From the NCBI GenBank assembly GCA_016125085.1, contig WGMM01000029.1:16745-80744 (forward strand): DNA of 64,000 nt, in the 5' to 3' direction. The position numbers were made by a program, and so were the translations under genes. A model generated the notes under the pieces. It searched no databases, was not told the origin of the DNA, and saw only the letters and a program-made list of their open reading frames with translations. This DNA comes from a bacterium (GTDB lineage: Bacteria; Planctomycetota; Planctomycetia; Isosphaerales; Isosphaeraceae). This document shows, piece by piece, positions 1-20,841 of the stretch; positions within the stretch are counted from its first letter, which is position 1; the number at the start of each line of letters is the position of its first letter.

Positions 1-3000
1 AGGTGCCGCTGGACGGCAGGCTAAGCTGTAGATTCGCGTTCGTGCTGACCACCTGCGAGCCGGTGGCGGCCAGGTCGAGCTTGATTCCGCCGCCCTGGAA
101 GTTCGAAAAGTCGAGCGTGTCGCCCGTCACGCCGGTCGGCACGTTCAGGACGATGCTGCCGAACTCGATCCCCGAGGATCCGCCGACGAAGAAGAACGTG
201 TCGTCCGGGCCGTTGCCGCTGAACGTCCCGGTGAGTGAGGCGGGAATCGCAGTCCCGGCCGGGAGACCCAACAGGCCGGAGTCTTCGATCACGAACGTGT
301 TTCCGCCATCCGATCCCGTGACCGTGAAATTGGCTAGCAAGCCGCCGATCAAGGTGTTATTCGACCCATGGGCCGTGACGTTCACGCGGAAGGCCGAGGC
401 CGCGAGGCCGCTGGCGATCCCGTTCGTCACCATCGCCAGTTGGCTCGAATCGATCGACTCGATGAAGAGGCTGTCGGTCCCGATGTCGAACGTCGAGAGT
501 GGCCCGCCCGTCGCCTGGTTGCCGCTCCCCGGCAGCGTGACGTTGAGCCGGAAGTTGCTCAGCAGCGATCCGGTAAGGATACGTGCGGCACCGGTGGCAC
601 CCTCGGTGTGGAGGAACTGCTCCAGGATCGCCGGGTTCGTCTGGAGGAACTGCTGGAGCAGCGAGGGTTCGGCGGCGAGGAACTGACTGAGCAATGCCGG
701 ATTGTTCAGGAGGAACATCTGAAGCACGGCGGGATTGGCGGTCAGGTACTGCGAGAGCGAGGTCGGGGAACTCTGCAGGTAATCGAGCAGAGCGGACGGA
801 TTCTCCTCGAGATAAGTCTGCAGAGCCGCGGCATTGCTGACCAGGTACTGGGACAGAGCTGCCGGATTGCCGGCGAGATACTGCTGAAGCAGCGTGCTGT
901 CGATCGCAAGGAACTGTTGAAGGACGCTCGGATTGGCCGTGAGGTAGGTCTGGAGAGCCGCGGGGTTGGCCGTCAGATACTGCTGCAGTCTGGCGGGGTT
1001 CGCCATGACGTACTGAATCAGGATCGCCGGGTTGTCCGTCAGGAAACTCGACAACGCGGCCGGGTTGGCCCTGATGTACTGGGCGAGGGCCGTCGAGGCG
1101 CTCGAAAGGTATTGCGCCAGAGCCGTGGGGCTGCTCGCCAGGTATAGCTGCAGCAGGTTGTTCGAGGTGCCCTGCCACGCGATGTATGCCTGCAAGTCGC
1201 TGGGGTCGGCGGTCAGGTAAGCCAGAAGGCCAACGGATCCGCCGCTTTGCCATGCCGCATTGGCTTTGCCGTTGCCGCTGGTGGTGTCCCAACTCAGGAA
1301 CGCGTTCAAGAGGCTGCTGTTCGACGTCAGATAGGCGCTCATGCCCGCGACGTTGGCTGCGAGGTAAGCCTGTTGCGAGGCCGGCGAACTGGCGAGGTAA
1401 ACCGCCACGATGCCGCTGTTGCCGGTCAGGTATGTCTGGAGCGAAGCCGGGTTGCTCAGCAGATACTGCTGGAGAATCGCCGGGTTACTTGCCACGTAAA
1501 CCTGCATGCTTGAAGGGTTGGTCGCCAGGTAGGCCGCGAGAGTCCCCGCGCCGTTCGCGGCGACCGCCGCGGGATCGCCCGTGAATGCACTGCTGGCCAG
1601 ATAGGCGCTCAGCAGAGTGCTGTTGCTCGTCAGATAGGCGCTGAAGCCCGCGGCATCGGCCGCCAGATAGGCCTGCAGGCCCACCGGGTTGCTGACGATG
1701 TACTGGGCGATCGCCGTGGCGTTCTGACTGAGATAGCTCTGCAGGGCCGATGCATTCGCTTGGAGATATTGGGCGAGAGAGGCCGGGCTCGAGGCCAGGT
1801 AAGCCCCGAGAACGTTCGGATTTCCCGTGAGGAAAGAACTGAGCAGCGTCGGATTCTGCCGGAGATAAGCCTGCAGCGCGGCGCCGCCGTTCGGGGCATT
1901 CGGATTCGCCTGCAGGAACGCGGCAAGGGCCGTGCTGTTCGTGGCGATGTAGGCGCCGATGCCGCCGGAGTCGGTGTTGAGGAAGGCCGCCAGAGCCGTC
2001 GAATTGCTGGCGATGTAAGACGCGACCGATGCCCCGTTCTGGCGCAGGAATGACTGCACAGCAGCTGGGCCGCTTGCGAGGTACACCGCGATGCCGGTCG
2101 GGTTCGACGCGAGGTAAGCCTGCAACGCCGTGGAGTTGTTCGCGATGTACTGCGCGATGACCGCGGGGGCTTGTGCCAGGTACGCCGCGAGTCCCGCGGG
2201 GTTCGACGCGAAGTACGACTGAAGAGCGGCGGGGCTCGAAGCCAGGTAGGTTTGGAGAGTGGCTGGATTGATCCCGAGATAGCGGCTCAGAAGAGCGGGA
2301 TTCGCCTGAAGATACGACTGAAGCGCCGCCTGGCCTGCGGCGTCTCCGCTGCCGTAGGCCGCCTGCGCGGCGTCGTTGCCTGCGATGAAGACGCTCGCCA
2401 TGGCCGAGTTCGCAGCGATGTACGCGCTGATCCCGGCCGAGTCTGCCGCCAGGAATGCCGAGATCGCCGTCGGATTGCCTGCGAGCCAGGCCGCAATGGC
2501 CGCGGAGTTTTGCCGGAGGAACGCCGCCTGCGCCGAGGCATTGCCGGACAGGTACTGCACCACCGCGGCGCTGTTCTGTCGAAGATAGCCCTGGAGTGCG
2601 GCGGGCGAGTTCGAAAGATATTGCTGCAGGACCGCTGGGCTGCTGCTGAGGTATCGCTGCAGAGCCGCCGGATTCGAAGCGAGATACGTCTGAAGTGCCG
2701 CGCTGTTGGCGGTCAGATAGGTCTGGAGAGCGGTCGGATTCGCGGCGATGTATTGCTCAATTATCGTCGCATTCGTCGAGAGATACTGCTGAAGTGCCGA
2801 CGGGTTGCTTGTCACGTACGTCTGCAGAGCGGCGGCGTTCGTCACGAGATAAGTCTGAAGCGTGGCCGGGTTGCTGGTCAAGTATTGTTGCAAGGCCGTG
2901 GAATAACTGGCGAGGTAACCCGAAAGCCCCGTCGGGTTCGCGGCGAGGTATTGCTGGAGCCCGGTCGGGGCACTCACCAGGTACTGCTGGAGTATCGAAG

Positions 3001-6000
3001 GATTGCTCGCGATGAACAGCTGAAGCGAGGTTGCGTTCACCTGCAGGAAAGCGAAGAGCCCGGTGGATCCGCCCTCGAGATAAGCCTGTGAAGCACTCGG
3101 GTTCGCTCTCAGATAGGCGCTCGTGGCCGTCGGGTTCGAGACGATGTAGGAGCTGACTCCGTCCGAGTCCGCGGCGAGGTAAGTGAGCGCGTTGATCGGA
3201 TCGCCCACGATGTACGCGGCGATCGAGGCCGCATTCTGCGTGATGTAGGATTGCAGCGCCGAAGAGTTGGCCACCAGGTAGGATTGAAGGGCCGACGGAC
3301 TGGAAGCCAGGTAGGCGCCCAGGCCACCCGGGGCTGCATCCACGAATGCCGCAAGGGCATTGCCGTCTCCCATCAGGAAGGCCTGAAGCGAGGCGATGCC
3401 GCCGTTGAGATACGCCGATCGCGCGGCCGGGTTGGTTGCGAGGAACGCGTCGATCGTGCTCTGCGGTGAAGCCGAAACGAGGTAGGCACTCAAACCTGCC
3501 GGGTCAGCCGAGAGGAAGGCCTGCCGCGCGGCCGGAGTGCTGGCGAGATACGCGGAGACTCCCGCGCTGCCTTGCTGGAGGAAGGCCTGCCGCGCGGCGG
3601 TGTTGCTGGCGATGTACTGAGAGACGGCCCTCGCGTTGGCTTGCAGATAAGCCGAAAGCGCGCTCGGATTCGCGGTGAGGTACGACTGCAGCGAAGTTGA
3701 GTTTCCGGCCAGGTACGTCTGGAGTGTCGCCGGATTGCTCGTGAGGAAGGAGCTGAGCAGAGTGGGGTTCTGCCGGAGATAGGCCTGAAGCTCGGCCCCG
3801 CCGTTCGGGGCATTCGGATTTGCCTGCAGGAATGCTGCGAGGGCCGTGCTGTTCGAGGCGATGTACGCGCTGATGCCGCCTGAGTCGGCATTGAGGAAGG
3901 CCGCCAGAGCCGTCGAATTGCTGGCGATGTAAGACGCGACGGCCGCCCCGTTTTGGCGCAGGAACGACTGCTGAGCGTCCGGTTCCCCGGCGATGAACGC
4001 GGTCACGGCCGCGGAGTTGGCAGTGAGGTAAGCGGATGCCGCGGCGGTGTTGGTCGCCAGGTATTGCGCCACGGCGGCCGAGTTTCCTGCCAGGAATGCC
4101 TGCGCCGCGGCGCTGTTGAGTACGAGATACTGAGAGATACTGGCAGGATTGCCGCGGAGGAACGCCGCCAGGCTCAAGGCGTCGCCAGCCAGGAATTTGG
4201 CGATCCCCGCCGCATTCGCCTGCAGGAATGCCTGCTGAGCGATGGGCACGCTGTTGAGATAACTCTGCGCCTGGGGCCCGGTCGTGGCCGCATAGGCGTT
4301 GACGATCGCGGTGATGGCGGAATCGGAGCTTTGGATTACCGTATTGCCGCCGCTGTAGGCCTGGACGACTGCCCCCGCGGCGCCGAAGACCTTGTTGCCG
4401 CTCCCGACGATCAGGACATGCGTACCTGGAACGGCCGTGCCGCCGCTCACCACCGCGGGTGCGGCATACAGGGTCACCCCGCTGCCCACGACCGCTTTCT
4501 GGAACCGGCCGCCGAGCACGAGCGTGGCAAGCGACCCCGTGACGAGCAGGCTCGGGTCAAGCAGCGACTTCGGGTCGGTGCTCCCCGGAAAGCTCAGCGG
4601 GGTTTGCACGACGTTCGGCGTGTTCAGGTTCACCACGAAGGTGTCGCTCGTGATCTTCCCGCCGGTCGCCGTCGGTACGGACACCGGTTTGGTGTTGAGT
4701 GCGATGAACGTGTTGTCTGTGCCCGCGGGGTTCAGAGTCAGGGCACCCAGGAAGCCGTTGACGATATTCGTATTGCTCGCGGCACCGCCGTTGACGACCA
4801 GGTTCGCGAACCGCGCGCTCAAAGGTATGATCGCCGTGAAGTTCTGATTCGGGCCGGTCACGGCCGATTCGTCAGGGTTACTGTTGATGGTGACCGTCGC
4901 ACCGACGGGCAGGCTCTCCAGATTCAGCCTCGCGGCGTTCGACGGAACCGTCACGGTGGCCTGGGGTATGGTCCGCTGGGTCGCGTCGCCGGACGTGGTC
5001 GCGGCGGGAGCTGGCGGAAGAAGGATCAGCGTGTTGGCGTTGTAAAGGAAGCTGAGGCCGGCCGGCAGCGACTTGGATCCGAAGTCACCGGCGATCGAAC
5101 CGAACGACAGCGGCACGAACGCGTTATCGTCGCCTGGGGCGAAACCCGCGGCCAACGCCACGTTGAGCGTGCCGTTCAGCGAGGCGGCTCCGTTCACGTA
5201 AAGCTGGCCGTAGTCGATGCCACCGACCGTGCCTGCCAGGGATATGTCGATCGTTCCGGTCACTGTCTGGGTGAAGCTCCCGCCAATGACGATCGATCCC
5301 GTCGGGTTGACCCGGGCGGAGCTGGTCACATTTCCCCGGATCAGGCCGGAACCGGTCAGCGATCCACCGTTGACGATGACTGAGCCGGTGCCGGTCATGA
5401 TCAAGGTCGTGAGGAAAGTGGCCGTCTCCTGCCCGCTCATGGCATCGAAAGCGAATTTGCCGGCCGATGTGTCGACTGTCGCGCCGCTGCCGACGCTCAA
5501 ACTGTCGATGGTCTCGGTCGTGTTCCCGGCGTGCGTCACCGTGACACCGTTCGGGATCACGACTTTGGGGATCACAAGCGGGTTCTGGCCGGGCACCGCG
5601 TTCCCGACCCAGTTGCTCGCGGTGTCCCAGTCGTTGTTGCCAGCATTGCCCGTCCAGTACACCACGGGGTGGGTGCTCGTGCCGATGAAGTCCGAGGGGA
5701 ACCAGCCCGCGCTGCCGTCGGCTACACCGATCAGGTTGCGGCCCAGGGAGGTAATGAACTTGTCCTGGACGTCGGGTGCGGTTCCCGGGTCAAATCCGCC
5801 GCCGCCGACCGCCGTGTTCCCGGCGACGACCGAGTTGTTCAGGGTCTGCGAGCCGCGGTTATCGAAAAGGCCGCCGCCGGTTGCGGCGGAGTTCCCGGTG
5901 ACGAAACTATTGGTCAGGAAGGACCGGCTGTCGTTATACATGCCGCCGCCGTTGATGCCGGCGGTGTTTTCGCTGATGGTACAGGTCGTCAGCCGGATGA

Positions 6001-9000
6001 GCCGCCTGTTGAAGATGCCGCCGCCGTCGTTGATGGCGGAGTTCCCCTTCACGGTGGTGTTGGTCAATGTCATGCGTGAGAAATTGTAAATGCCGCCGCC
6101 GTCCAGGGTGGAGTTCCCGACGATGGTGCAGTCCGTAAAAAACTCGAGCCCCGCGCGGTACGAGTAAACACCGCCGCCCTTGTTTTTGGCGGTGTTGCCG
6201 CTGATGGTGCAGCTGTTCAGCGTGGTCACGTCGGCGTCATCGTAGCCGAATTGTTCGTCGAACACATACAAACCGCCGCCTTTGTCGCCGCTGGAGTTTC
6301 CGCTGATGGTGCAGCCGGTCATCGTCAGCGTGCCGTACTGTTTGAGGATGCCACCGGCGTTCCCGGCAGCGGTGTTGCCGCTGACGGTGCTGTCTGTCAG
6401 TGTCGACGTGCCCCGGAAGTTGCCGAAACCGCCGACCTCCGAGGTGGACCTGTTACCGCTGATGGTGCAGTCGATCAGCACGGCCGTCCCGAAGTAGTTC
6501 CCCATGCCCCCGACGAAGCCGGCGGTGTTTCCGCTGATGGTGCAATTGGTCAGGGTGATCGTGCCGCCGGAGTTCGAGACTCCGCCCGAGCCGGAGGCGG
6601 AATTGCCGCTGATGGTGCAGTCAGTCAGTGTTGCTGTGCCCCTGTTGTACAGGCCGCCGCCATTCCCGGTGGTCGAACCACCCGAGATGGTCAGGCCGCT
6701 GAACAAAGCCGTCACCCCTTCATCGACCTGGAACACCCGGCTCCGCCCGCCGCCGCTGACCGTCACGCCGCCCGCCGGGCCTGTGATCGTCTCCGTCCCG
6801 GCCTGGTTGCTCAGCTCGATTTGGCCGAGCGTCAACGAGATCGTCTGACCGCCGGTGAAAACCGCCGGGTCGAAGGTGATCGTCTGGCCTGGGACCAGGT
6901 TGGCGCTCTGGATCGCCTCGCGCAGGCTGGTCGTCCCTGAATAGACACTGGATGTGTCGGCGGTCGTGTTGACCACGAAGCTCGGGGCGATCACCGTCAA
7001 GGTGACCTCCGGGCTGGTGATGCCCGCCATGGATGCAGTGATCGTGCTCGTGCCCAGGTCCAATCCGGTGACGGTAAAGCCGCTGAACGCCGCGACCGAA
7101 GGCGTGCCTGACGCCCATTCCGCTGATTTGGTGATGTCCTGAGTCGAGCCGTCCGAGAACGTGCCCGTGGCGGTGAGTTGCGCCGCCACACCGAGTGCGA
7201 GCAAGGGTTTGCCGGGGGACAGCGCGATCGACATAAGGGCGAAGTTCGTGAGGCTGAAGTCGGCCGAATCCGCGGTTCCACGGAAGGTCGCCGAGACGAT
7301 GTAGCTGCCGCCGACGAAGTTGGACGCGGCCACGACGCTCGCATTGCCGTCGCCGCCGATGACCGCCGGGCTCCCCGTGAGGGTCGCCGATGGACCCTCG
7401 GTCGGCGCGGTGAAAGTCACCAGCCCGCCCGCGACCGGTTCGCTCGGGTTCGATGCCGTGACCGTGACGACGAGGGCGGCGGAAAACACGCCACTGGCCG
7501 TCTGGCCGCTCCCCGAGGCGATGGCGAGGGCGAAACCGCTCGACTCGAAAGCGCCGATGTCCACCACGCCGCTCCTGATCGAGCCACGCTGGTCGGTCGC
7601 GGGTACGCTCGCTCCCCCGGCTCCGGCGTCAAGCGCCGGACTGCCGGGCAAAAGGGGCATCGTCTGCGTCAAACCGCCGTAATAGCCCAGTGGCGCCAGC
7701 ATCGCCTTCAGCGGCACGCTGCTTGATCCTCTCAAGTCAGACCCGACAAATCCGGAGCCGCCATTGGCGACGCCGATCAGGTTGTAGCCGGCGGAGACGA
7801 TGCGGCCAGAGAGATCGCTTGTGAACTGAGAGCCAGGTCTCACGTTGCCCGCGACGATAGTGTTGGTCAGCTTGGTCGTGCCGTTCGATATCCCGCCGCC
7901 GCCGCTACTAAGGCCCGTGTTGCCGCTCACGGTGCTGTTGGTCAACGTGAGCGTGCCGGCGCCCTGGTTGAAAAATCCGCCGCCATACTTGGCGGAGTTG
8001 CCGCTGATGGTGCTGTTCGTGAGCGTGAGCGTGGCCAGGGGGTAGTTGGCCAGGCCGCCCCCGAGGCCCTTGGCGGAGTTGCCGCTGACGGTGCAGTTCG
8101 TCAGAGCGGCGGAACCGACGTTGTACAGGCCGCCGCCGTTGTCGTTGACGTAGCGAGTGTTGCGATTGTTGAAGCCGGCGCCGTCCGCGGCGTTGCCACT
8201 GATAGTGCAGTCGGTCAGAGTGGCTGTGCCGAGGTTGTACAATCCGCCGCCGGCCCTGTCGCCCTTGCCGGAGTTGCCGCTGACGGTGCTGCCGGTCAGG
8301 ATGACGGTGCCGACGTTGAACAACCCACCGCCACTCGAGGCGGAGTTGCCGCTGACGGTGCAGTTCGTCAGCGTGGCCGTACCGATGACGTACAGGCCGC
8401 CGCCGTTTCCGGAAGTCGTACCGCCCGAGATGGTCAGACCACTGAGGGAGGCCGTCGCCCCTTTCTCGACCTGGAACACCCGGATCAGCCCGCCGCCGCT
8501 GACGGTCACGCCCGCCGCGGGGCCAGTGATGGTGACAGCCTCCGTTGTGTTGAGCAACTCGAGCGGGGTTCCGGTCAGGGTGATCGTCTGCGCTGAGGCG
8601 AAGACGATCGGATCGAAGGTGATGTTCGACATTCCCAGGGAATCGTAATTGGCGAACCCGACCGCCTCGCGCAGGCTCAGGAGGCCCGCGCCCGGGGCCA
8701 GGGAGTCACTCGTCGTATTCACGACCAGAGCCGCGAATCGTGTGCCCGTGTTGGTCAGGGCGAACGAGGTGGTGGACAGACCGCCGGCGGATGCGACGAA
8801 GTCATAACTGCCGAGAGCGTTGTTGGGCGCGGCGGTGATGGTGGCCCGGCCACCGGCGATGACGGTCGACGGAACCGAGGGGACCGCCGTGGGACCGTTG
8901 AAGGGTTTACCGCCGAAAGAGATCACGCCGCCGTTGACCGGTTCAAGCGGGTTGTTGGCCGCCACCGTCACGGTTAGTGGCTTGGCGAACGCCGAACCGA

Positions 9001-12000
9001 TGTTCGCATTTTGCTGGCTGCCGGCGGAGACCGTGAGGGTGAAGCCCTCGCTCTCGAAGGCGCCGATGTCGACGCCACCCACCCGGCTTACCCCGCGCTC
9101 GTCGGTCGCGAGAACGCCCGCGACGCTGGTTCCGGCATCGATCGCCGGACTTCCGGGCAGAAGAGCCAGGGTCTGATTCGGCCCGCCGTAGTCGCCGAGG
9201 GGGACTAGCATCGGGTTCAACGGCGCGGCCTTGCTGCCTGTCAAGTCGGTCGTGGTCCAACCCGTTTTGTAGCCTACGGTCGCAATGCCGATAATGTTGT
9301 AACCGCCGCTGAGGGGGTAGCCCCTCACATCGGATTCGGCATTGGGTCTGGTGTTGGTGGTGATGTTGCCCGCGACGATCGTGTTGGTCAGCGTCATGCC
9401 GGTGGACGACGTCGGCGAGAAACTGGTGGACAGGCCGCCGCCCCCTCGACCGGCGGTGTTTCCGCTGACGGTGCAATTGGTCAGCGTGGCCTGGCCGGAG
9501 TCGGCGATGGCGCCGCCGTACCTGCCGGCGGTGTTGCCGACGACGGTGCAGTTGGTCAGGGTGGCTCTTGACCCGCCACTGTTCCAAACCCCGCCGCCGA
9601 CGCCGGAGGCCGTGTTTCCGCTGACGGTGCAGTCGGTCAGCGTGAGCGTGCCCTGGTTGTAAACGCCGCCGCCACTTACGCTGGTGTTGCCGCCCGAGAT
9701 GGTCAGCCCCGAGATCGACGCCGTAACGTTCGAGTCGACGTGGAACACTCGGCTCAACCCGCCGCCGCTGATCGTCAAGCCCGCCGCGGGGCCCGTGATC
9801 GTCATCGTCTCGGTCGTGTTGCTCAACTCCAGCTCGGCCCCGCTCAAGGTGATCGTCTGGTGTGTGCTGAAAACGGCCGGATCGAAAGTGATGCCTGAGA
9901 TGCCCGTGGAATCGAGGTCGAGTAAGGAGATGGCCTTACGCAGGCTCATGAGGCCCGAGGTCGGAGTGAGGGCGTCTTGCGTCGTATTCACGACGAGTTT
10001 TGTGAAGGGCGTGCCGGTATTGGTCAGAGCGAACGACACCGGGGGCGAACCCGTGAGTGATGCGACCACCGTGTAGCTGCCAAGGGCGTTGTTGGGCGCG
10101 GCAGTGACGGAAGCGAGGCCCCCCGAGATCACCGCCGAGGAGGACGAAAGATACGCCCTGGCGCCATCCACCGGGTTGACCACGAAGTCGACGGCGGCGC
10201 CGTCGACCGGCTCGACCGGGTCGTTGGCCGTCAACGTCAGGCCGAGGGCGTTGGCGAACGACTTGCCGATGTCCGCACTCTGCGGGCTGCTACCCGCAAC
10301 CGCCTTGAGAATGAACCCCTGGCTTTCGAAGGCACCGATGTCGACGGCCCCGAACCTGCGCTTCCCGCGCTCGTCGGTGGTGAGCACGCCCGCGCCGCTG
10401 GTTCCGGCGTCGATCGCCGGGCTCCCCGGCAGAAGCGCGACCGTCTGTCCCGTGGCGCCGTAGGTGCCCAGTACGGGATTGCCGCTGGCATCGGTCGGGA
10501 AGATCGAGGACAGCGAGCGTCCGACGAGATTTCCGTCGACACCGTCCGTCAGCCCGCCGGCCGTGTTCCCATCGCCGATCAGGTTGAAGGTGCCGTTGAC
10601 AGAGCCGCCGATGTCCGTGGGATCGCTCAAGCCGTAGCCGAACACGAAGTTGCCGGCGACGATGGTGTTGGTCAGCGTCGCCGTCCCGGAGTTGAACACG
10701 CCGCCGCCGAGGCTGCTTTCGCGGGCGTTACTGCCGACGAAGGTGCAGTTGGTCAGCGTGACCGTCCCTGAGTTGAACAGGCCGCCGCCGGAAAGGGCGG
10801 AGTTGCCGCTGACGGTGCAGTTGGTCAGCGCGAGCGTGCCCTGGTTGAGCAGGCCACCGCCGTCGTAATTCCCCGAATAGTTCTGCGGCGACCAGCCGTT
10901 GTAACCGGCCGAGGCGCCGCCGTAGCCCGCGTTGCCGCCGGTGATGCTCAGCCCCGAGATGGACGCCTTGACGTTCGGGTCGATCTGGAAGACACGACTC
11001 TTCCCGTCGGCGTTGACCGTGACACCCCCCGCCGGGCCCGTGATCGTCGTGGTCCCCGTCGTGTCGCTCAACTCCAGCAGTGTGCCGCCCAGGGTGATCC
11101 TCTGCGAAGTGGCGAAGACGACCGGGTCGAACGTGATCGACTGGTCCCCCTCCAGGAGGTTGGCCAGGTTGACCGCCTGGCGCAGACTGAGCCGGCCGGC
11201 GGCCGCCGGGCCGTCGACGGTCGTGTTGACGACGAGAAGTGAGCTTTGCCTCTGAAAGGCACCGATGTCGATCGGGGCGTCCAACGCGAAGCCGCGCTGA
11301 TCGGCCGTGACGCCGCTGGCGGTTCCCTTGCCGATGGCCGGACTGCCGGGCAAGAGCGGCATGGTCAGGGTCGGTCCGCCGTACGACCCCAGAACGCCGA
11401 GTCCGGGGTTTGCGACGCCGACGATGTTGCCGTTGGTCCCGTTGATTAGACCTCCCGAGCCCCCGGTACCGATCAGGTTGTGAGAACCGGTCACATTGCC
11501 CGAAATGTCGCTGGTATTGCCGGCGACGATCGAGTTGGTCAGCGTGGTCGTGCCGCCAGGGCTATATAAGCCGGCACCGGTCGCCCCGGAGTTGCCACTG
11601 AACGTGCAATTGACCAGCGTGGCATTGCCCGAGCTGTTGAAAAGGCCGCTGCCCCTGGATGGGACGACGCCGGTCGAGGGGGTTCCCTGAACGAAAAGTT
11701 CGCGGTAACCGACGTACGCATTCTGGGGCAAAGGGAAGGAGAACCGGATCGCGGCCACATGACTGGCGAGAATCCCTGTACTGCTGGTGAGAAACGCGGC
11801 CGTATCGCTGGGACTCCCGTCGAACGTGGGGGTGGATACGTCACTCAGCACCTGGAACCTGGTCGGGTCGAGCACCGTGGAATAGAGCACGGTGTAATCT
11901 TGCCGGCTGTGGCCCGAATCGCGCCAACCGGCATAGGTGTTGATGTTCGTAATGTCGTAACCCAGCGGGTTGGTGCCCGTGTCCAGGTTGTACGTGATTT

Positions 12001-13051
12001 GCTCCCCGTTGATGAGGATCACGAGATCGGGGTTCGGCCCGGGGTCATCGGTCAGGCCGGGCGGACCGAACTGGCCGTCTTTCAGCATGGCGATGCCGCC
12101 CGGGTGGAGCCCTTCCCCACCGGAGAGATTGAATACGTTGCCGACGACGTTCGTACTGCTCAGGCTCGTCTGAAGGAGCCCGGACGTGGGGATGGTAAAT
12201 CCGTCGCTGGAGCCCGCCGAACTCAGGCTCGGCACCCCCGCCACGCCGGGATCGAGGTAAAAGTTGCTGCTGACGGTGCAGTTGGTCAGCGCCAGCGAAC
12301 CACCCTGGTTGTACGTCCCTGCACCGTTCAAGGCAGAGTTGACGCTGACTGTACTGTCGCTCAGCGTTGCCGTGCCCCGGTTGATCAGGCCACCGCCGTC
12401 TTTCGCTGAGTTGCCGCTGATCGAAGAACCGGTCAGCGTAAGCGTGCCCAGGTTGAAAATGCCGCCGCCGTCGTTGCTGGCCGTGTTGCCGCTCACCGTG
12501 GTGTCGATCAGCGTCGCGATGCCGCGGTTGTACAAGCCGCCGCCGTCACTGCCGGAGTTGCCGCTGACCGTAGCGTCGGTCAGCGTAAGCGTGCCCTGGT
12601 TGTAGAGGCCGCCGCCTTCGCTTACGCCTTGGCCTCCAGCGATCGTCAGTCCCGAGATCGACGCCGTTACGTTCCGGTTGATCTGGAACACCCGGCTCAG
12701 TTGGTTGCCGTTCACCGAGACACCCGCCGCGGGGCCGATGATCGTCGCGGCACCCGTCGTGTCGGTCAGCTCGAGCTGCGAGCCCGACAGGTAGATCGTT
12801 TTCGGGGTGGCGAACACCGTGCTGTCGAACGTGATCGTGTCAGCGCCCGGGTTCGAATTCGCCTGGCCGATGGCCCATCGCAGCGATCCGGGGTTGCGAT
12901 CGTCCGTCGTGTTGTACACCGCGAATGTGGAGAGCAGCGTGCGTTCTTCCAGCGCCAAAAGATTCGGACGCAGTCCCAGGCGTTGGCCCCTGCGGGCCTT
13001 GACCGTGCCGCGCCCGAATCGTCGCTGATCGCCTGTCCTGAAGTAACTCAT
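1..13051 (-). CDS. giant secreted/cell-surface beta-helix repeat protein (N-terminal 4350 codons; C-terminus lies beyond the left window edge)
   Basis: The minus-strand frame with codon first bases at coordinate = 1 mod 3 is open from ATG 13051..13049 to position 2 with no stop. The ORF track lists no minus ORF in this frame between 1 and 13051, which fits an ORF with no in-window stop. My translation starts MSYFRTGDQRRFGRGTVKARRGQRLGLRPNLLALEERTLLSTFAVYNTTDD. It continues with repeated (T/S)LTNCT(V/I)SGN(S/T)A..GGG(L/I)(Y/F)N beta-helix units, Ig-like linkers, and then an 11-residue repeat region. An alternative in-frame ATG lies at 13123. Confidence 0.85.
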   Translation of the reverse strand, partial: MSYFRTGDQRRFGRGTVKARRGQRLGLRPNLLALEERTLLSTFAVYNTTDDRNPGSLRWAIGQANSNPGADTITFDSTVFATPKTIYLSGSQLELTDTTGAATIIGPAAGVSVNGNQLSRVFQINRNVTASISGLTIAGGQGVSEGGGLYNQGTLTLTDATVSGNSGSDGGGLYNRGIATLIDTTVSGNTASNDGGGIFNLGTLTLTGSSISGNSAKDGGGLINRGTATLSDSTVSVNSALNGAGTYNQGGSLALTNCTVSSNFYLDPGVAGVPSLSSAGSSDGFTIPTSGLLQTSLSSTNVVGNVFNLSGGEGLHPGGIAMLKDGQFGPPGLTDDPGPNPDLVILINGEQITYNLDTGTNPLGYDITNINTYAGWRDSGHSRQDYTVLYSTVLDPTRFQVLSDVSTPTFDGSPSDTAAFLTSSTGILASHVAAIRFSFPLPQNAYVGYRELFVQGTPSTGVVPSRGSGLFNSSGNATLVNCTFSGNSGATGAGLYSPGGTTTLTNSIVAGNTSDISGNVTGSHNLIGTGGSGGLINGTNGNIVGVANPGLGVLGSYGGPTLTMPLLPGSPAIGKGTASGVTADQRGFALDAPIDIGAFQRQSSLLVVNTTVDGPAAAGRLSLRQAVNLANLLEGDQSITFDPVVFATSQRITLGGTLLELSDTTGTTTITGPAGGVTVNADGKSRVFQIDPNVKASISGLSITGGNAGYGGASAGYNGWSPQNYSGNYDGGGLLNQGTLALTNCTVSGNSALSGGGLFNSGTVTLTNCTFVGSNARESSLGGGVFNSGTATLTNTIVAGNFVFGYGLSDPTDIGGSVNGTFNLIGDGNTAGGLTDGVDGNLVGRSLSSIFPTDASGNPVLGTYGATGQTVALLPGSPAIDAGTSGAGVLTTDERGKRRFGAVDIGAFESQGFILKAVAGSSPQSADIGKSFANALGLTLTANDPVEPVDGAAVDFVVNPVDGARAYLSSSSAVISGGLASVTAAPNNALGSYTVVASLTGSPPVSFALTNTGTPFTKLVVNTTQDALTPTSGLMSLRKAISLLDLDSTGISGITFDPAVFSTHQTITLSGAELELSNTTETMTITGPAAGLTISGGGLSRVFHVDSNVTASISGLTISGGNTSVSGGGVYNQGTLTLTDCTVSGNTASGVGGGVWNSGGSRATLTNCTVVGNTAGRYGGAIADSGQATLTNCTVSGNTAGRGGGGLSTSFSPTSSTGMTLTNTIVAGNITTNTRPNAESDVRGYPLSGGYNIIGIATVGYKTGWTTTDLTGSKAAPLNPMLVPLGDYGGPNQTLALLPGSPAIDAGTSVAGVLATDERGVSRVGGVDIGAFESEGFTLTVSAGSQQNANIGSAFAKPLTVTVAANNPLEPVNGGVISFGGKPFNGPTAVPSVPSTVIAGGRATITAAPNNALGSYDFVASAGGLSTTSFALTNTGTRFAALVVNTTSDSLAPGAGLLSLREAVGFANYDSLGMSNITFDPIVFASAQTITLTGTPLELLNTTEAVTITGPAAGVTVSGGGLIRVFQVEKGATASLSGLTISGGTTSGNGGGLYVIGTATLTNCTVSGNSASSGGGLFNVGTVILTGSTVSGNSGKGDRAGGGLYNLGTATLTDCTISGNAADGAGFNNRNTRYVNDNGGGLYNVGSAALTNCTVSGNSAKGLGGGLANYPLATLTLTNSTISGNSAKYGGGFFNQGAGTLTLTNSTVSGNTGLSSGGGGISNGTTKLTNTIVAGNVRPGSQFTSDLSGRIVSAGYNLIGVANGGSGFVGSDLRGSSSVPLKAMLAPLGYYGGLTQTMPLLPGSPALDAGAGGASVPATDQRGSIRSGVVDIGAFESSGFALAIASGSGQTASGVFSAALVVTVTASNPSEPVAGGLVTFTAPTEGPSATLTGSPAVIGGDGNASVVAASNFVGGSYIVSATFRGTADSADFSLTNFALMSIALSPGKPLLALGVAAQLTATGTFSDGSTQDITKSAEWASGTPSVAAFSGFTVTGLDLGTSTITASMAGITSPEVTLTVIAPSFVVNTTADTSSVYSGTTSLREAIQSANLVPGQTITFDPAVFTGGQTISLTLGQIELSNQAGTETITGPAGGVTVSGGGRSRVFQVDEGVTALFSGLTISGGSTTGNGGGLYNRGTATLTDCTISGNSASGSGGVSNSGGTITLTNCTISGNTAGFVGGMGNYFGTAVLIDCTISGNRSTSEVGGFGNFRGTSTLTDSTVSGNTAAGNAGGILKQYGTLTMTGCTISGNSSGDKGGGLYVFDEQFGYDDADVTTLNSCTISGNTAKNKGGGVYSYRAGLEFFTDCTIVGNSTLDGGGIYNFSRMTLTNTTVKGNSAINDGGGIFNRRLIRLTTCTISENTAGINGGGMYNDSRSFLTNSFVTGNSAATGGGLFDNRGSQTLNNSVVAGNTAVGGGGFDPGTAPDVQDKFITSLGRNLIGVADGSAGWFPSDFIGTSTHPVVYWTGNAGNNDWDTASNWVGNAVPGQNPLVIPKVVIPNGVTVTHAGNTTETIDSLSVGSGATVDTSAGKFAFDAMSGQETATFLTTLIMTGTGSVIVNGGSLTGSGLIRGNVTSSARVNPTGSIVIGGSFTQTVTGTIDISLAGTVGGIDYGQLYVNGAASLNGTLNVALAAGFAPGDDNAFVPLSFGSIAGDFGSKSLPAGLSFLYNANTLILLPPAPAATTSGDATQRTIPQATVTVPSNAARLNLESLPVGATVTINSNPDESAVTGPNQNFTAIIPLSARFANLVVNGGAASNTNIVNGFLGALTLNPAGTDNTFIALNTKPVSVPTATGGKITSDTFVVNLNTPNVVQTPLSFPGSTDPKSLLDPSLLVTGSLATLVLGGRFQKAVVGSGVTLYAAPAVVSGGTAVPGTHVLIVGSGNKVFGAAGAVVQAYSGGNTVIQSSDSAITAIVNAYAATTGPQAQSYLNSVPIAQQAFLQANAAGIAKFLAGDALSLAAFLRGNPASISQYLVLNSAAAQAFLAGNSAAVAQYLATNTAAASAYLTANSAAVTAFIAGEPDAQQSFLRQNGAAVASYIASNSTALAAFLNADSGGISAYIASNSTALAAFLQANPNAPNGGAELQAYLRQNPTLLSSFLTSNPATLQTYLAGNSTSLQSYLTANPSALSAYLQANARAVSQYIASNTAARQAFLQQGSAGVSAYLASTPAARQAFLSADPAGLSAYLVSASPQSTIDAFLATNPAARSAYLNGGIASLQAFLMGDGNALAAFVDAAPGGLGAYLASSPSALQSYLVANSSALQSYITQNAASIAAYIVGDPINALTYLAADSDGVSSYIVSNPTATSAYLRANPSASQAYLEGGSTGLFAFLQVNATSLQLFIASNPSILQQYLVSAPTGLQQYLAANPTGLSGYLASYSTALQQYLTSNPATLQTYLVTNAAALQTYVTSNPSALQQYLSTNATIIEQYIAANPTALQTYLTANSAALQTYLASNPAALQRYLSSSPAVLQQYLSNSPAALQGYLRQNSAAVVQYLSGNASAQAAFLRQNSAAIAAWLAGNPTAISAFLAADSAGISAYIAANSAMASVFIAGNDAAQAAYGSGDAAGQAALQSYLQANPALLSRYLGINPATLQTYLASSPAALQSYFASNPAGLAAYLAQAPAVIAQYIANNSTALQAYLASNPTGIAVYLASGPAAVQSFLRQNGASVASYIASNSTALAAFLNTDSGGIGAYIATNSTALAAFLQANPNAPNGGAALQAYLRQNPTLLSSFLTGNPNVLGAYLASSPASLAQYLQANASALQSYLSQNATAIAQYIVSNPVGLQAYLAADAAGFSAYLTSNSTLLSAYLASSAFTGDPAAVAANGAGTLAAYLATNPSSMQVYVASNPAILQQYLLSNPASLQTYLTGNSGIVAVYLASSPASQQAYLAANVAGMSAYLTSNSSLLNAFLSWDTTSGNGKANAAWQSGGSVGLLAYLTADPSDLQAYIAWQGTSNNLLQLYLASSPTALAQYLSSASTALAQYIRANPAALSSFLTDNPAILIQYVMANPARLQQYLTANPAALQTYLTANPSVLQQFLAIDSTLLQQYLAGNPAALSQYLVSNAAALQTYLEENPSALLDYLQSSPTSLSQYLTANPAVLQMFLLNNPALLSQFLAAEPSLLQQFLQTNPAILEQFLHTEGATGAARILTGSLLSNFRLNVTLPGSGNQATGGPLSTFDIGTDSLFIESIDSSQLAMVTNGIASGLAASAFRVNVTAHGSNNTLIGGLLANFTVTGSDGGNTFVIEDSGLLGLPAGTAIPASLTGTFSGNGPDDTFFFVGGSSGIEFGSIVLNVPTGVTGDTLDFSNFQGGGIKLDLAATGSQVVSTNANLQLSLPSSGT
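607..4285 (-). repeat. 33-nt / 11-residue tandem repeat region of the giant CDS (consensus about x-x-N-P-x-A-L-Q-x-Y-L)
   Basis: A strict 33-nt register is visible on the plus strand, for example ten consecutive 33-mers from about 2672 each ending in ...ga|g(a/g)ta. Translation of the minus strand gives MANPARLQQYL TANPAALQTYL TANPSVLQQFL AIDSTLLQQYL AGNPAALSQYL VSNAAALQTYL EENPSALLDYL and so on. Some units are longer, for example ANPNAPNGGAELQAYL. Confidence 0.85.
5600..12895 (-). repeat. five tandem modules inside the giant CDS (CSLREA-like motif + parallel beta-helix repeats + DIGAFE-type end motif)
   Basis: Module starts (GSLRWAIG, LSLRQAV, MSLRKAI, LSLREAV, TSLREAI) lie near 12895, 11200, 9955, 8680 and 6930. 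Module ends (D-Q/E-R-G-x-x-R-x(4-5)-D-I-G-A-F-E/Q) lie near 11251, 10325, 9053 and 7544. The fifth module lacks that end motif and runs to about 5600. The recurring plus-strand string gttgccgctgacggtgcagttggtcag is the reverse complement of LTNCTVSGN. Confidence 0.75.
6985..7210 (-). other. Big_2-like bacterial Ig domain within the giant CDS
   Basis: The translation is KPLLALGVAAQLTATGTFSDGSTQDITKSAEWASGTPSVAAFSGFTVTGLDLGTSTITASMAGITSPEVTLTVI. This has the typical Big_2 pattern (L.atg.fsDGs..dvT....W.S......tv...G.vt....G...ita). Confidence 0.5.
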
Positions 13052-13203
13052 GCTGCTGTCTCTCTGATGTTCGTGGTAAACGACATGTGACCGACAGCCT
13101 CGCCCCTCGCCCTTACGAACCATGAACCGACAGGCAGGGCTGTGCTGTCTCCAAAGAAGAGCGGGTGCGGCCCGCCATGAGGATCAGCGAATCGAAGCGA
13201 TCC

Positions 13204-14376
13204 TTACGAACCAGGAATTTCGGAATTCCGGGGACGACCGCTCACGTGCGGCTCCCGCAGCTCCGGCGACACATCAGCCAGCGCCGCATCGGGGACGACG
13301 AACGAGTTTTCCAGCAATTTCTCGTCGTCGTTGATCAAGTCCGGATATCGCCGGCCCGGCAGCACGGTCACGGCGAAGACCTCCTGCACAGCGGTCTCGA
13401 AACGCAAGAGAGCGACGACTTGCCCGGAAGTCAGGTCGATCACGCAGACGCCGCAGGTTCTCTCTTCTTCGGGCAGCCGCTCGGTAATCGGAATGCCGCT
13501 GAAGACCGCGCTTTCACGCACCTGGGAGAGGCCCACGAAGGCGAAATTCCCGGCGAAATCCACGCCCCGCGTGAAGCCTGAAACTTCGGCGATCGGCTCA
13601 TACTTGCCGGTTCTGAGATCGATGTAGCCGAAGGTCCCTGCGCCCGATTCGCACACCCAGAGCCGCCCGCGATACCATCGCGGCGAGTGGGGCATCGAAA
13701 GGCCCCGCGTGATCACCTCGCCCGAGGCTACGTCCATGACGATGCCGCCTCTCGCCTTGTTCGCCCGCCAGCCGGCCGGCGTGTCCGTCTCGCCCAGCGC
13801 CGTGACGTACTTCGGCTTGCCGTCGAACATCCCCAATCCGTTCAGGTGGCATCGGTCGGTCGGCTCAAGGGCCGAGACGAACGGCGGCCGCCAGCGGGGC
13901 GTGAAGCTCGCGGACTTGTCGATCGTGCAGAGACACGAGAACCGCGTGTTGACGGCCCAGAGTTCCTCGCCGCTGCCCCAGGCCATATCGTGAATCTGAA
14001 TGTTGCCCGTGAAATGGGCTGACCGGGGCAGAAAGCACGCATCGTGCCGACCGGTCGGTTCCAGCCGCGCCGCCACTGCCGGGACGTCGACGTATTCCCA
14101 CACATGTATCTGCGTGCCGACCGCCAGGCGGTTGCCGGCCACGGCCAGGCCCATGGGTGAGTGAAAGGCGCGGAAGTGCGCGTTGAGGTGATCTCCTTCG
14201 TCGCGGACCAGCACGAGCTTGCCGGCCTGATAGGTGGTGACAAGGAGCGACGCGCCGATCTGACGCAGAATCGCAGGGAAGTTCGCCGTGTGAACCGCCC
14301 GAAGTTGTATCGCGGCATCCGCCACGGAGAGTTCCGGTTCTGGCATCGGTTCGGCGATTGAAGCGGCTGTCGTCAT
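13204..14376 (-). CDS. TIGR03032-family (DUF4915-like) conserved hypothetical protein
   Basis: The 390-aa ORF carries motifs I associate with TIGR03032: SPMGLAV..NRLAVGT, HDMAW....LWAVNTRFSCLCT, FTPRWRPPFVS, DRCHLNGL, SMPHSPRW..GRLWVCESG. It is co-directional with, and 152 nt upstream of, the giant CDS. Confidence 0.7.
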   Translation of the reverse strand: MTTAASIAEPMPEPELSVADAAIQLRAVHTANFPAILRQIGASLLVTTYQAGKLVLVRDEGDHLNAHFRAFHSPMGLAVAGNRLAVGTQIHVWEYVDVPAVAARLEPTGRHDACFLPRSAHFTGNIQIHDMAWGSGEELWAVNTRFSCLCTIDKSASFTPRWRPPFVSALEPTDRCHLNGLGMFDGKPKYVTALGETDTPAGWRANKARGGIVMDVASGEVITRGLSMPHSPRWYRGRLWVCESGAGTFGYIDLRTGKYEPIAEVSGFTRGVDFAGNFAFVGLSQVRESAVFSGIPITERLPEEERTCGVCVIDLTSGQVVALLRFETAVQEVFAVTVLPGRRYPDLINDDEKLLENSFVVPDAALADVSPELREPHVSGRPRNSEIPGS

Positions 14377-15547: not shown

Positions 15548-18500
15548 ATGAACGAACTCGACCTGTTCGCTGCCGCGATTGCGATCGACGACTCTCGCGA
15601 GCGTGATGCCCTGCTGGATCGTGAATGTGCCGGCCGCCCGGAGCTGCGCCTGCGGCTCGACGAGCTGCTGGTCGAGCACTTCCGAATCGACCCGCGATCC
15701 GATCGACCGGGCTGCGAGCCGACCACGTCTCTTTCCGCAACGGAGGCTGGAGATATGGGCACCCAGATCCGATGGAAGCCGGCCGACGACGTGGAGATGG
15801 ACAAGACCTTCATCGATCGGCCGCAGGATTATGCCGAGCCGGGGATCTTCGGCCCGGGCGATCGCGACAAGAACGAGCAGGCCGGCACCGTCATCGCCGG
15901 CAAGTACACGCTGGCCGAAGTCATCGGCGAGGGCGGCATGGGCTCCGTCTGGCGGGCCCGGCAGACCGAGCCGGTCAAGCGGTTCGTCGCGGTCAAGCTG
16001 ATCAAGGCCGGCATGGACTCCCGGCAGGTCCTGGCCCGGTTCGAGGCCGAACGCCAGGCCCTCGCGATGATGGATCACCCCAACATCGCCAAGGTGCTCG
16101 ACGGGGGGCTGCACCAGGGCCGGCCCTACTTCGTGATGGAGCTGGTCAAGGGCATCCCGATCACCGATTATTGCGATCGGAAACGGCTCACCCCGAAGGA
16201 GCGGCTCGATCTTTTCGTCCCGGTCTGCCAGGCGATCCAGCATGCCCACCAGAAGGGGATCATCCACCGCGACATCAAGCCCTCCAACGTGCTGATCGCA
16301 CTTTACGACGACCGGCCCGTGGTGAAGGTGATCGACTTCGGCGTGGCCAAGGCGACCGGCGGAGCGCTCACCGATCAGACCCTCGATACCGGCTTCGGCG
16401 GCGTGGTCGGCACGCCCCAGTACATGAGCCCCGAGCAGGCGACGTTCAACAATCTGGACGTCGACACTCGCAGTGACGTCTATGCCCTGGGCGTTCTGCT
16501 CTACGAGCTGCTGACCGGCTCACCGCCGTTTTCCAGGGACGAACTGGAGAAACGCGGCGTCCTGGAGATGCTGCGGGTGGTGCGTGAGGAGGAGCCGCCC
16601 CGGCCGAGCACGAAGCTCTCGACGGCCGATGCGCTGCCGTCGCTTTCGGCCAACCGGAGCACCGTGCCTTCGAAGCTGGCGGGCCTGCTGCGGAACGAAC
16701 TCGACTGGATCGTGATGAAGGCGCTGGAGAAGGACCGGTCACGGCGTTACGAGACGGCCAACGGGTTCGCGGCCGACGTGCAGCGATATCTGGCGGGCGA
16801 GGCGGTTCTGGCGCACCCGCCGAGCACTGGCTACCGGCTGCGGAAGTTCGCGCGAAAGCACCGGGTGGGGCTGACGACGACGGCGGCGCTGGCGCTGCTG
16901 CTGGTGGCGGGGGTGGCCGCCAGCACCTGGCAGGCGGTGCGCGCCACGCGGGCGGAGGCGGCTGCGCGGCTCGCGGAAGGCGTCGCGGTGCGGGCGCAGC
17001 GGGCCGAAGCCGAGCGAGCCGAGGGCGAGCGGCTCGCCAGGCTCGACGCGCAGGCCAGGAAGGCCGAGGCCGAGCGAGCGCAGATTCGCGCCGAGGCGGG
17101 CGAGGCACTTGCCGGCGAGCGGCTCGTCCAGGTCGAGGCCGAGAAGAAGAAGGCCGAGGAGGAGCAGCAGATCGCCCAGGCGGTGAAGGTCTTTCTGCTA
17201 AATAAGCTGCTGGCCCAGACCGACGTGAGTCAGCAGGCCGACGCGCTGCTGAAGGCGGGCGGCACGGCGACCGAGGCGCGGCCGAACCCGACCATCCGCG
17301 AGCTTCTCGACCGGGCCGCCAGGGAGCTGGCGCCGGACCGGATTGAGCAGAGCTTCCCGGGGCAACCTCGGGTCCAGTCCGAGATTCTCGCCACGGTGGG
17401 CAACGCCTATCGTGGCATCGGCGAATTCCCGGCGGCGATCGAATTCCTGAAACGGTCCGAAGCCTTGTGCCGGCAACACGGCGGCCCCGAGCACCCCAGT
17501 ACGCTCAACAGAATGCACCTTCTTGCCCTCGCGTATGAAGCCGCCGGCAAGCCGATGCTGGCCGTGCCGCTCTTCGAGGAAACCCTGAGGATTCGAAGGG
17601 CCACGCTCGGCCCCGAGCACCAAGACACGCTCAATACGATGAGTTCGCTCGCCGGGGCGTATAGTTCCGCCGGGGAGGCTGACCTGGCCGTGTCGCTCCA
17701 CGAGGAGACCCTGAGGATTCGAAGGGCCACGCTCGGCCCCGAGCACCACGACACCATCGCCGGAATGAGCAACCTCGCCCTGGCATACCGCCACGCCGGG
17801 AAGGTGGACCTGGCCGTGCCGCTCGCCACAGAGGCGTTGAGACTGACGAAGGCCAAGCTTGGCCCCGACCACCCCGATACGCTCAGCGGCATGAGCAATC
17901 TCGGCATGCTGTATAAGGTCGCCGGGAAGCCGGGCCTGGCACTGCCGCTCTACGAGGAGGCGTTGAGGCGACAGAAGGCGAAGCTCGGCCCCGAGAATCC
18001 CAGCACCCTGACCACGATGAACAGCCTCGCCGCGGCGTATCTTGACGCCGGGAAGGCGGACCTGGGGCTGCCGCTCATGGAGGAGACCGTGAAGCTCAGG
18101 CGGGCCACGCTCGGCCCCGAGCATCCCAGGACTCTCGACAGCATGGGCAACCTTGCCCTGGCGTATAACATGGCGGGGAAGGCGGACCTGGCCATGCCGC
18201 TCATCGAGGAGACCCTGAAGCTCCGGCGTGCCACACTCGGCCCCGAGCATCCCAGGACACTCGACGGCATGAGGATCCTGGCCGGCACGTATAACGCCGC
18301 CGGGAAGGCGGACCTTGCCGTGCCGCTCTACGAGGAAACGCTGAGGCGACAGCAGGCGAAGCTCGGCCCCGAGCACCCCGACACGCTCACCACGATGGCC
18401 AGCCTCGCCGTGGCGCATCTCGCCACCGGGAGGGCGGACCTGGGCCTGCCGATCTTCGAGGAGACCCTGAAGCTCAACAAGTCAAGGCTTGGTGCCGAGA

Positions 18501-19683: not shown

Positions 19684-20313
19684 CCCGAGCGTGCGTGACC
19701 GACGGAGTTCAGGCATCTCACAGCCATCGATCGCCCCTCATGACGCGACCGCAACATCATCGACTCGCACGGCGAGCCGTATGGAGGATGACCTGGTGAT
19801 TGCCTGGAATCGATCTTTCGGATGGACCCTTCCGGGTCATCCGAAGGCAGGCAATAACACTGACCAATATCACGGTCGCCATGCTCGGCTCGAATTCGCA
19901 ACCGACTGACGAGCCACAACTTCTGATCGACTTGACGTCCTTCATCGATGACATGGGCCGTGGTGCTTTCCCCGCTGCGGCAACCGGGATGCCCAGACGC
20001 CGAGGAACGGAGGGCTCACTTCATGTGGGCCGTGGTTCACAACGGGACTGAATCGCTGCCGTGGAGATTGTCGGGGTTCTCCAGGCGTCAGTCGATTTCT
20101 GTTCGGCCGATCCGCTCGATTGACGACGACTTCTTGGGTGCCCGCACGGTCTTCACCCAGCCTCATGAGCTTGCTCGTCGTTCACTGGCATGAGGTCGCG
20201 CAGCGATCGACGTCCAAGTCGCAAAGGCTCGCGAGATGCTCTCGCCGGCACTGCAGGCTGGGCTTCGCGGCCTGGAGAATTACGCCGCCGATCTTTTCAG
20301 GCGGAAGGGCCGT

Positions 20314-20408: not shown

Positions 20409-20424
20409 GGTGGAGGGCGCTCGG

Positions 20425-20836: not shown

Positions 20837-20841
20837 GCCAG

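Follow-up and report, generated by a model that had tools for sequence, protein, structure and literature searches.

Introduction

The question raised by this locus is what a run of eleven-residue units, continued over more than a thousand residues, is doing in the middle of a giant bacterial protein, and whether anything like it has been described. The run (hereafter the array) is encoded near the left end of a 64,000-nucleotide stretch of Isosphaeraceae DNA (Planctomycetota; GenBank assembly GCA_016125085.1, contig WGMM01000029.1, positions 16,745 to 80,744), which is referred to here as the window. An earlier note, made by reading the letters of the window, had placed the array at 607-4285 on the minus strand and proposed that it is a stalk of short N-capped helices; its position (611-4288 by our measure), strand, unit count (~108) and composition (4% charged, no Cys) have proved essentially right, and the peptide strings that it quoted are found at aa 4071-4136. 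Our results support the view that the array is an undescribed repeat, of the helical tandem-repeat spacer type, with capped helices like those of STI1 domains. They also lead us to favour, with moderate confidence, a reading in which this undescribed 11-residue repeat forms a folded rod or solenoid and acts as a length-setting spacer within a cassette of giant secreted proteins.

The array is coding sequence in a strict register

The array is genuine coding sequence. It lies in a minus-strand frame that runs for 4,394 codons without a stop (window 2-13183) and is still open at the window's left edge, so that only the 5' part of the giant gene is present and its frame comprises at least 4,394 codons; because it runs off the left end and is incomplete, the gene is absent from the list of open reading frames. 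Within the array region there is neither a frameshift nor a stop, and the G+C content at third codon positions (GC3) is 0.79 in the array frame, the overall G+C content of the window being ~0.64. The consensus of the unit, A-S-N-P-A-A-L-Q-A-Y-L, ends in an anchor of the form [YFW][LIVMF], of which the array has 106, spaced by exactly 11 residues in 98 of the 105 intervals; the seven other spacings are 13, 14, 17, 17, 24, 25 and 27 residues, and as several of the longer intervals consist of two degenerate units, the total comes to roughly 108-110. Residue identity at a lag of 11 is 0.349, compared with 0.110 ± 0.008 in shuffled sequences (z = 29), and the signal is still present at lags of 22 to 66, while DNA identity at a lag of 33 is 0.474 versus ~0.27 at neighbouring lags. 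Counted over 105 units, the eleven positions are led by A41, S32, N66, P53, A50, A46, L66, Q45, A43, Y74/F30 and L83/I17. The array consists largely of Ala (22%), Leu (14%), Ser (12%), Gln (8%), Asn (7%) and Tyr (6%), with A+S+Q+N+T+G making up 61%; the charged residues D+E+K+R amount to 48 of 1,215 (4%) and Met to 0.5%, and Cys and His are absent altogether.

The DNA copies of the unit are just 60-75% identical to each other, which leaves each unit unique, so that an assembler could not have collapsed or inflated them. Tandem Repeats Finder nearly misses the array, detecting just two short 33-nt arrays in the region, because the copies are too diverged, and autocorrelation at the protein level is needed to see it. 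The sole recent event is a 300-nt segmental duplication (Table 1) that covers ~8 units and includes an irregular 17-residue unit, QANPNAPNGGA(E/A)LQAYL.

Each unit is predicted to be a short capped helix

The residues at the unit boundary are far from random: position 3 is N, D, S or T in 87 of the 105 units, position 4 holds 53 of the array's 56 prolines (Pro is thus found there in ~50% of units), the pairs NP, SP, DP, AP or EP occupy positions 3-4 in 50 of the 105, and Gly clusters at positions 2, 3 and 6. A helix N-cap that is followed by Pro at N1, together with a C-terminal Gly, is a textbook signature (Richardson and Richardson 1988, as cited in PMC13083928), and it is because of Asn/Asp/Ser/Thr at position 3, Pro at position 4 and Gly at the boundaries that we read the units as N-capped. 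From 20 units and a 16-row alignment, built of array blocks that do not overlap, AlphaFold2 derived 20 helices of 10 residues, predicted to begin at unit position 4 and separated by a single non-helical residue, Asn3; a second model, of the last six units and the downstream domain, has the same pattern of helices and breaks, with a predicted local distance difference test score (pLDDT) of ~70. Each unit would most likely be a short N-capped alpha-helix, and a secondary structure of one helix per unit is reasonably supported by the models and the boundary statistics alike. In this respect the earlier note, which had suggested structure prediction on 10-20 units as a check, is supported in its reading of the units as short N-capped helices.

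Two further ideas about the array were tried and rejected. There is a weak unit-to-unit super-period, which is 22 residues in the window array and in two homologs (L004 and P0007) and 33 residues in two others (L005 and P0003), and this difference between arrays speaks against one consistent structural super-period across homologs; the pattern may reflect structure or, equally, how the arrays were amplified. Nor are N-X-S/T sequons enriched (15 observed vs 15.5 ± 3.5 expected), as N-glycosylation might lead one to expect.

Array length is conserved between close species and varies among distant ones

A scan of 185,579 species genomes, with the conserved domain that follows the array as the query, gave four loci. 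Three are in Planctomycetota metagenome-assembled genomes (MAGs), one of these annotated as Isosphaeraceae; the fourth, from a Bryobacteraceae MAG, matches the query weakly and in part (51 residues at 41% identity, E 3e-4). The closest locus, L003, comes from an independent Isosphaeraceae MAG of another species, and its array has the same unit count as that of the window and shares its irregular units. Aligned with each other over all of their 1,215 residues, the arrays of the window and L003 show 0 indels and 83.8% identity, at a synonymous divergence (dS) of 0.47 and a ratio of nonsynonymous to synonymous divergence (dN/dS) of 0.19, which is the same constraint as that of the flanking globular parts. 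Positions 7, 10 and 11 are the best kept (0.90-0.94), followed by positions 3 and 4, and the same is seen among units, where the entropy minima lie at positions 10, 11, 3 and 7. As the 300-nt duplication is also carried by L003, it must have arisen before the two species separated. The strict conservation between close species shows array length to be under selection and not freely variable. The earlier note had named frameshifts and an assembly artefact as what might undo its proposal; the open frame is intact, and the alignment to L003 needs no indel.

Further afield, six relatives emerged when 5.8 billion protein clusters were searched by word index, and a profile search run exhaustively against 1.84 billion representatives gave 415 matches at E <= 1e-3, of which 86 reach <= 1e-10 and 18 reach <= 1e-30. 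We defined an 'N-P capped 11-mer' family by 8 or more units at 11 residues, with N or D as residue 3, often Pro as residue 4 and [YFW][LIVMF] as residues 10-11, by a share of charged residues under 12%, and by the flanks described below. The window array has the unit features of this family, as do 15 of the 153 representatives listed; the true Asn/Asp-Pro capped arrays, about 15 among these 153, are all in planctomycete-type giant proteins. A database search for lineage restriction had been suggested in the earlier note, and its outcome is that the array appears to be restricted to a handful of planctomycete lineages. Unit numbers are ~108 in the window and L003, ~130 in L004, ~250 in L005 and ~45 in P0007.

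The family is under-counted, as protein databases hold mostly fragments: public nanopore-based metagenome assemblies have each giant gene broken up into several gene calls (L001/L005), and a word-indexed search with the profile of the post-array domain brought up, for the most part, pieces of 100-330 aa from gene calls disrupted by frameshifts. At L002 there is a second, frameshift-ridden paralog (19501-23156) downstream of the first, with the pre-array segment and an array. Among the weaker profile matches are other 11/22-mer proteins, such as AT-rich, virus-like giant fibres (P0012, P0119, P0139, P0022 and P0040) that have periodic Asn and no Pro, several of them ending in a tail-fibre-type sequence resembling an intramolecular chaperone; these may represent convergence on a fibre of Asn-periodic 11-mers.

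The array is part of a conserved cassette

The array is flanked by two domains that travel with it. A blastp search with aa 2700-2976 found the pre-array segment just before the arrays of seven homologs (P0002, P0005, P0007, P0008, P0009, P0036 and P0068), and it is also present in the L002 paralogs. The post-array domain, of ~200 residues, is 43-68% identical in 17 homologs; AlphaFold2 models it with short regular beta strands at pLDDT values of up to 92. It has no Pfam match, and a Foldseek search with the model gave nothing significant, the best being beta-roll, beta-helix and serralysin-type proteins. Beyond the post-array domain, L003 (9962-14344) and the full-length homologs have GYTSAP-type repeats and then an HExxHxxGxxH motif, which gives weak but consistent matches to metzincin active sites (matrix metalloproteinase, MMP; karilysin; fragilysin) at E 0.006-0.03, although the region is recognised by no Pfam model in L003. 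Downstream of this motif come a marginal PPC (25.8 bits vs 25.9), Big_3_5, MBG and DUF4214.

The N-terminal modules are, by contrast, variable: the window and L003 have CSLREA/choice-of-anchor Q beta-helices there, P0007, P0008 and P0009 have repeats of unrelated kinds, and the array is accompanied throughout by its pre- and post-array domains. This comparison of sequences shows that the pre-array segment, an array of variable length, the post-array domain and a metzincin-like module make up a conserved cassette. It also changes the picture drawn in the earlier note, in which the array projects the beta-helix modules from the cell surface. The array is mid-protein, with the beta-helix modules N-terminal to it and, in homologs, further domains C-terminal; the beta-helices are exchanged for other repeats in three homologs while the flanking domains stay constant; and no surface anchor turned up, no test aimed at anchors having been made.

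In the whole protein, the N-terminal modules are all that Pfam and NCBIfam recognise, apart from a sub-threshold Big_2 (Pfam, 19.7 bits vs a cut-off of 22.8, E 8.4e-4). The NCBIfam matches, to choice-of-anchor Q (NF041518, 230 bits vs a cut-off of 25, E 1.4e-69, in 4 stretches) and CSLREA (TIGR04214, 43.9 bits vs a cut-off of 25, E 1.6e-11), are confined to the N-terminal 2,500 aa, outside the array. They place the host protein above the NCBIfam cut-offs for choice-of-anchor Q/CSLREA giant secreted proteins, an assignment that applies to the host and not to the array. Domains of extracellular type found in the protein, its ortholog or homologs are choice-of-anchor Q, Big_2 (sub-threshold), PPC (marginal), Big_3_5, MBG and DUF4214, as well as RTX in P0009.

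A proposed length-setting rod

In the reading that we favour, a helix of ~10 residues would start at the Asn/Asp/Ser N-cap at position 3, continue with Pro/Ser at position 4, and contribute Leu7, Tyr/Phe10, Leu/Ile11 and small Ala/Gly residues to a shared apolar seam. Some 108 such helices, meeting at single-residue corners and packed through these patches, could build a long and almost uncharged rod or solenoid. If the helices were collinear, the array would reach its upper bound of ~182 nm; wound with three or four units per turn, it might be an estimated 25-35 nm long. It would then serve as a length-setting spacer between the N-terminal modules and the C-terminal metzincin-like module, in proteins of Isosphaeraceae-type Planctomycetota that are probably secreted. 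We infer the tertiary geometry, the secretion and the spacer function from several observations. The 5-fold range of unit number among distant homologs, from ~45 to ~250, and the fixed position of the array between two conserved beta domains would both suit a module with length as its main parameter; the summed partial Pfam scores, which favour families of short D/N-P-initiated helices, also count in favour. The stalk envisaged in the earlier note survives to the extent that an extender or spacer role is plausible in view of the same 5-fold range, although not as a support running from an anchor to the beta-helix modules.

Several points weigh against a rod of this kind. The 20-unit AlphaFold2 model is of moderate confidence (pLDDT 65.7, predicted template modelling score 0.40), and Foldseek found nothing with E < 0.4 for it in the PDB (current to April 2026) or in BFVD; weak matches to HEAT/karyopherin and tape-measure folds are not evidence. 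Since about every second unit lacks Pro, the helix might run on through some of the junctions. Finally, the number of units is frozen between the two closest species, which fits a structural constraint and is unlike stalks whose length varies between strains. A more specific version, in which the array is a new alpha-solenoid with one 10-residue helix per 11-residue unit and single-residue Asn-Pro corners, wound as a polygonal spring around an Ala/Leu/Tyr core and spacing enzymatic modules in the giant exoproteins of planctomycetes, is a possibility that we regard as tentative and on balance doubtful.

Comparison with described families and alternative readings

That the array is not a described domain, as the earlier note had it, agrees with all of our searches: with the array alone, no single stretch rises above any Pfam domain threshold and there is likewise no domain-level NCBIfam match, and neither a sequence search of the PDB (best apoA-IV, E 0.06) nor the fold search gave anything significant. 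Literature searches on the repeat, on 'choice-of-anchor Q' and on DUF4915 found nothing relevant. The closest approach is to the STI1/DP-type group (the DP domain of Sti1/Hop, STI1 of ubiquilin/Dsk2, the XPC-binding domain of Rad23 and HDD of Ddi2), the only Pfam families whose summed array scores reach whole-sequence cut-offs. The sums are 39.5 bits for STI1-HOP_DP (PF17830; cut-off 29.1, best stretch at model positions 30-50 of 55), 28.6-32.5 bits for UBQLN1 (PF23195; cut-off 27, best stretch at model positions 8-41 of 70) and 27.7 bits for XPC-binding (PF09280; cut-off 26.4), with Ddi2_HDD (PF24669) at 32.4 bits vs a cut-off of 32.8. These sums arise solely from the addition of many partial repeat matches, no stretch passing the domain threshold, and with the whole protein as query PF17830 (20.6 bits) and PF23195 (17.2 bits) are both under their cut-offs. 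What is shared is short amphipathic helices begun by Asp/Asn-Pro and hydrophobic residues in an h-x-x-h-h pattern. In the solved structure an STI1 domain forms a 'helical hand' of six helices, with turns of ~90 degrees at conserved prolines and a Met-rich groove (PMC13083928); STI1 domains are closed, with ~55-70 residues, 5-6 helices and a Met-rich client groove, and belong to eukaryotic cytosolic proteostasis factors, whereas the array is open-ended, has ~108 uniform units and 0.5% Met, and is part of a bacterial protein of extracellular look. It matches just ~20 of 55 STI1 model positions, and Foldseek with the array model against the PDB gave no STI1 match. The array thus resembles STI1 helices at the level of the motif and is not a member of the family.

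Could the array nonetheless be surface-active, coating lipid or a hydrophobic surface after the manner of apolipoproteins or perilipin 4, or else be a row of STI1-like grooves with hydrophobic polymers or unfolded segments as their clients? We think this unlikely, although there is something to be said for each version. The Pfam Apolipoprotein model (PF01442) aligns with the array over 134 residues (36.1 bits, E 7e-9; 26.1 bits with the whole protein), apoA-IV is the best match in the PDB, and the weak 22-residue super-period of the window array is like that of apolipoprotein 22-mers. Exchangeable apolipoproteins (apoA-I/A-IV/E) share with the array the 11/22-residue periodic amphipathic helices punctuated by Pro. 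Giant 11-mer amphipathic helices are known as well, in the form of perilipin 4 (Plin4), whose 29 x 33-mer (3 x 11-mer) helix has no indels and is unfolded without lipid (PMC5889406); here the likeness extends to an array of ~1,000 residues, the 11-residue period, the near-absence of indels and the few bulky residues on the polar side. For grooves there are the STI1-HOP_DP and UBQLN1 sums above whole-sequence cut-offs. However, the Apolipoprotein score is far under the cut-off of 90. Apolipoprotein helices are highly charged and of class A, and the regular Lys/Arg and Glu/Asp of that class are not found in an array with 48 charged residues in 1,215, a conserved Asn central in the would-be lipid-binding face of its hydrophobic arc, and an unrelated phylogenetic context. 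Plin4 has no regular Pro, ~5 charges per 33-mer and no aromatics (PMC5889406), in contrast to the Tyr/Phe of each unit and the Asn-Pro caps seen here. Purifying selection with zero indels would suit a folded domain better than a helix induced by lipid, and a groove is hard to reconcile with the scarcity of Met and with partial matches of which no single one passes. Because the helices of apolipoproteins and Plin4 are charged and their Pro is absent or comes every 22 residues, the likeness is limited to the 11-residue period. The same can be said of the comparison with LEA proteins, apolipoproteins and antifreeze proteins in the earlier note, of which the period stands and nothing beyond it.

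Hendecad right-handed coiled coils, such as the tetrabrachion stalk, also have an 11-residue period and can provide a long stalk in a giant surface protein, and are built of unbroken, Pro-free helices. The array might accordingly be pictured as a continuous 11/3 helix that oligomerises into a right-handed coiled-coil fibre, with a core of Leu7, Tyr10 and Leu11 and a layer of buried Asn. The period is indeed exact, with secondary peaks at lags of 4 and 7; on an 11/3 wheel computed from the consensus, positions 6, 10, 3, 7, 11 and 4 form one contiguous arc; and there are weak profile matches to virus-like 11/22-mer fibres with periodic Asn (P0012, P0119, P0139). Those fibres, however, are without Pro. 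In the array, Pro4 in 53 of 105 units and the common Gly at positions 2, 3 and 6 are incompatible with long unbroken coiled coils, Asn sits in the middle of the hydrophobic stripe, at the 'h' position, in 66 of 105 units (63%), and AlphaFold2 breaks the helix at each Asn3, there being Pro or Gly at each unit boundary. A hendecad fibre is, in our judgement, quite unlikely.

The extenders of giant adhesins and 'periscope' proteins (Ig-like, SHIRT, Rib) are beta domains of 80-100 residues, often with near-identical DNA copies and with variation in length at the level of strains. What they share with the array is a long tandem array in the middle of a giant secreted protein, differences in copy number between homologs and, presumably, the setting of a distance. 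The array differs in its 11-residue helical unit, in DNA copies that are 60-75% identical and in a unit count that is equal in two species: neither near-identical DNA repeats nor a change of copy number in close relatives is seen, with 0 indels at dS 0.47.

It might also be argued that the array is an intrinsically disordered low-complexity linker, rich in Ala, Ser, Gln and Asn and perhaps adhesive or self-associating, as its composition is biased and almost uncharged, the pLDDT values of the AlphaFold2 models are 65-70, and there is no structural match in the PDB or BFVD. Disordered linkers normally gain indels. Over 1,215 residues there is none at dS 0.47, with a dN/dS of 0.19; the conserved large hydrophobics, at 27% of positions, keep strictly to the register, entropy is lowest at positions 10, 11, 3 and 7, and the predicted secondary structure is helical throughout. 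We consider a disordered linker very unlikely. An assembly artefact or non-coding repetitive DNA has a negligible chance of being the explanation: assemblies are well known to go wrong at tandem repeats, and homologous genes are frameshift-broken in nanopore metagenome assemblies, but the diverged copies are each unique and barely detected by Tandem Repeats Finder, the 13 kb frame is uninterrupted with a GC3 of 0.79, and an independent assembly of another species shares the unit count and the irregular units.

What the folded spacer would mean depends on how much of it holds. The giant proteins of Planctomycetota are mostly unannotated, and a compact repeat that can be recognised in sequence is now defined together with its cassette, which covers upwards of 1,200 of their residues. 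STI1-type Asn-Pro capped helices, it appears, can form open-ended arrays in bacteria. If there is one helix per 11 residues, this would be a new and very short helical repeat among fibrous protein folds, and a simple, uncharged and length-programmable scaffold for protein design. If the array is a solenoid, its repeat would be the shortest known for an alpha-solenoid and the whole a length-tunable, uncharged nanoscale rod of ~45 to 250 units. If it is merely a spacer, the result is a useful annotation and no conceptual advance.

Features of the window and neighbouring genes

Table 1. Features of the giant gene and its surroundings (positions in the window; residues in the giant frame).
Feature	Position	Strand	Residues	Remarks
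Giant gene, 5' part	2..13123	-		start likely ATG 13123 or ATG 13051; stop-free frame, GC3, NCBIfam matches
N-terminal modules	5684..12931	-		repeated CSLREA-type starts, choice-of-anchor Q right-handed beta-helix repeats, one Big_2; NCBIfam, Pfam
L-L-A-L-E-E-R-T-L-L-S motif	12929-12961	-	75-85	after an Arg-rich stretch
Pre-array domain	4289..4966	-	~2738-2965	last ~100 residues kept directly upstream of homolog arrays
Array	611..4288	-	2966-4191	~108 tandem 11-residue units
300-nt segmental duplication	1793..2092 and 3707..4006	-	3714-3796 and 3076-3158	82% identity
Post-array domain	2..610	-	4192-4394	ends at window edge; predicted beta-rich, solenoid-like
DUF4915 gene	13204..14376	-		directly upstream of giant gene; Pfam PF16261, 6.5e-131
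Ser/Thr kinase fused to long TPR array	15548-19192	+		
Integrase-like gene	24248-25222	-		Phage_integrase 25.9 bits, just under Pfam cut-off 27.1
PP2C phosphatase, then second Ser/Thr kinase	26484-29008	+		
Lhr-type large helicase	29065-33891	+		

For the kinase, integrase-like, phosphatase and helicase neighbours (Table 1) no functional link to the giant gene is obvious. The DUF4915 gene is of a different kind, as another (4444-5613) stands directly upstream of the homologous giant gene at L002 also, and this shared arrangement suggests that the two genes form a conserved unit. At the other extremity of the giant frame, the N-terminal L-L-A-L-E-E-R-T-L-L-S motif has counterparts near the N-termini of homologs, reading 'LASLEALEPRTLLAS' in P0009 and 'MILESLEERVVLS' in the L002 gene, and may be a lineage-specific export or leader motif distinct from a classical signal peptide.

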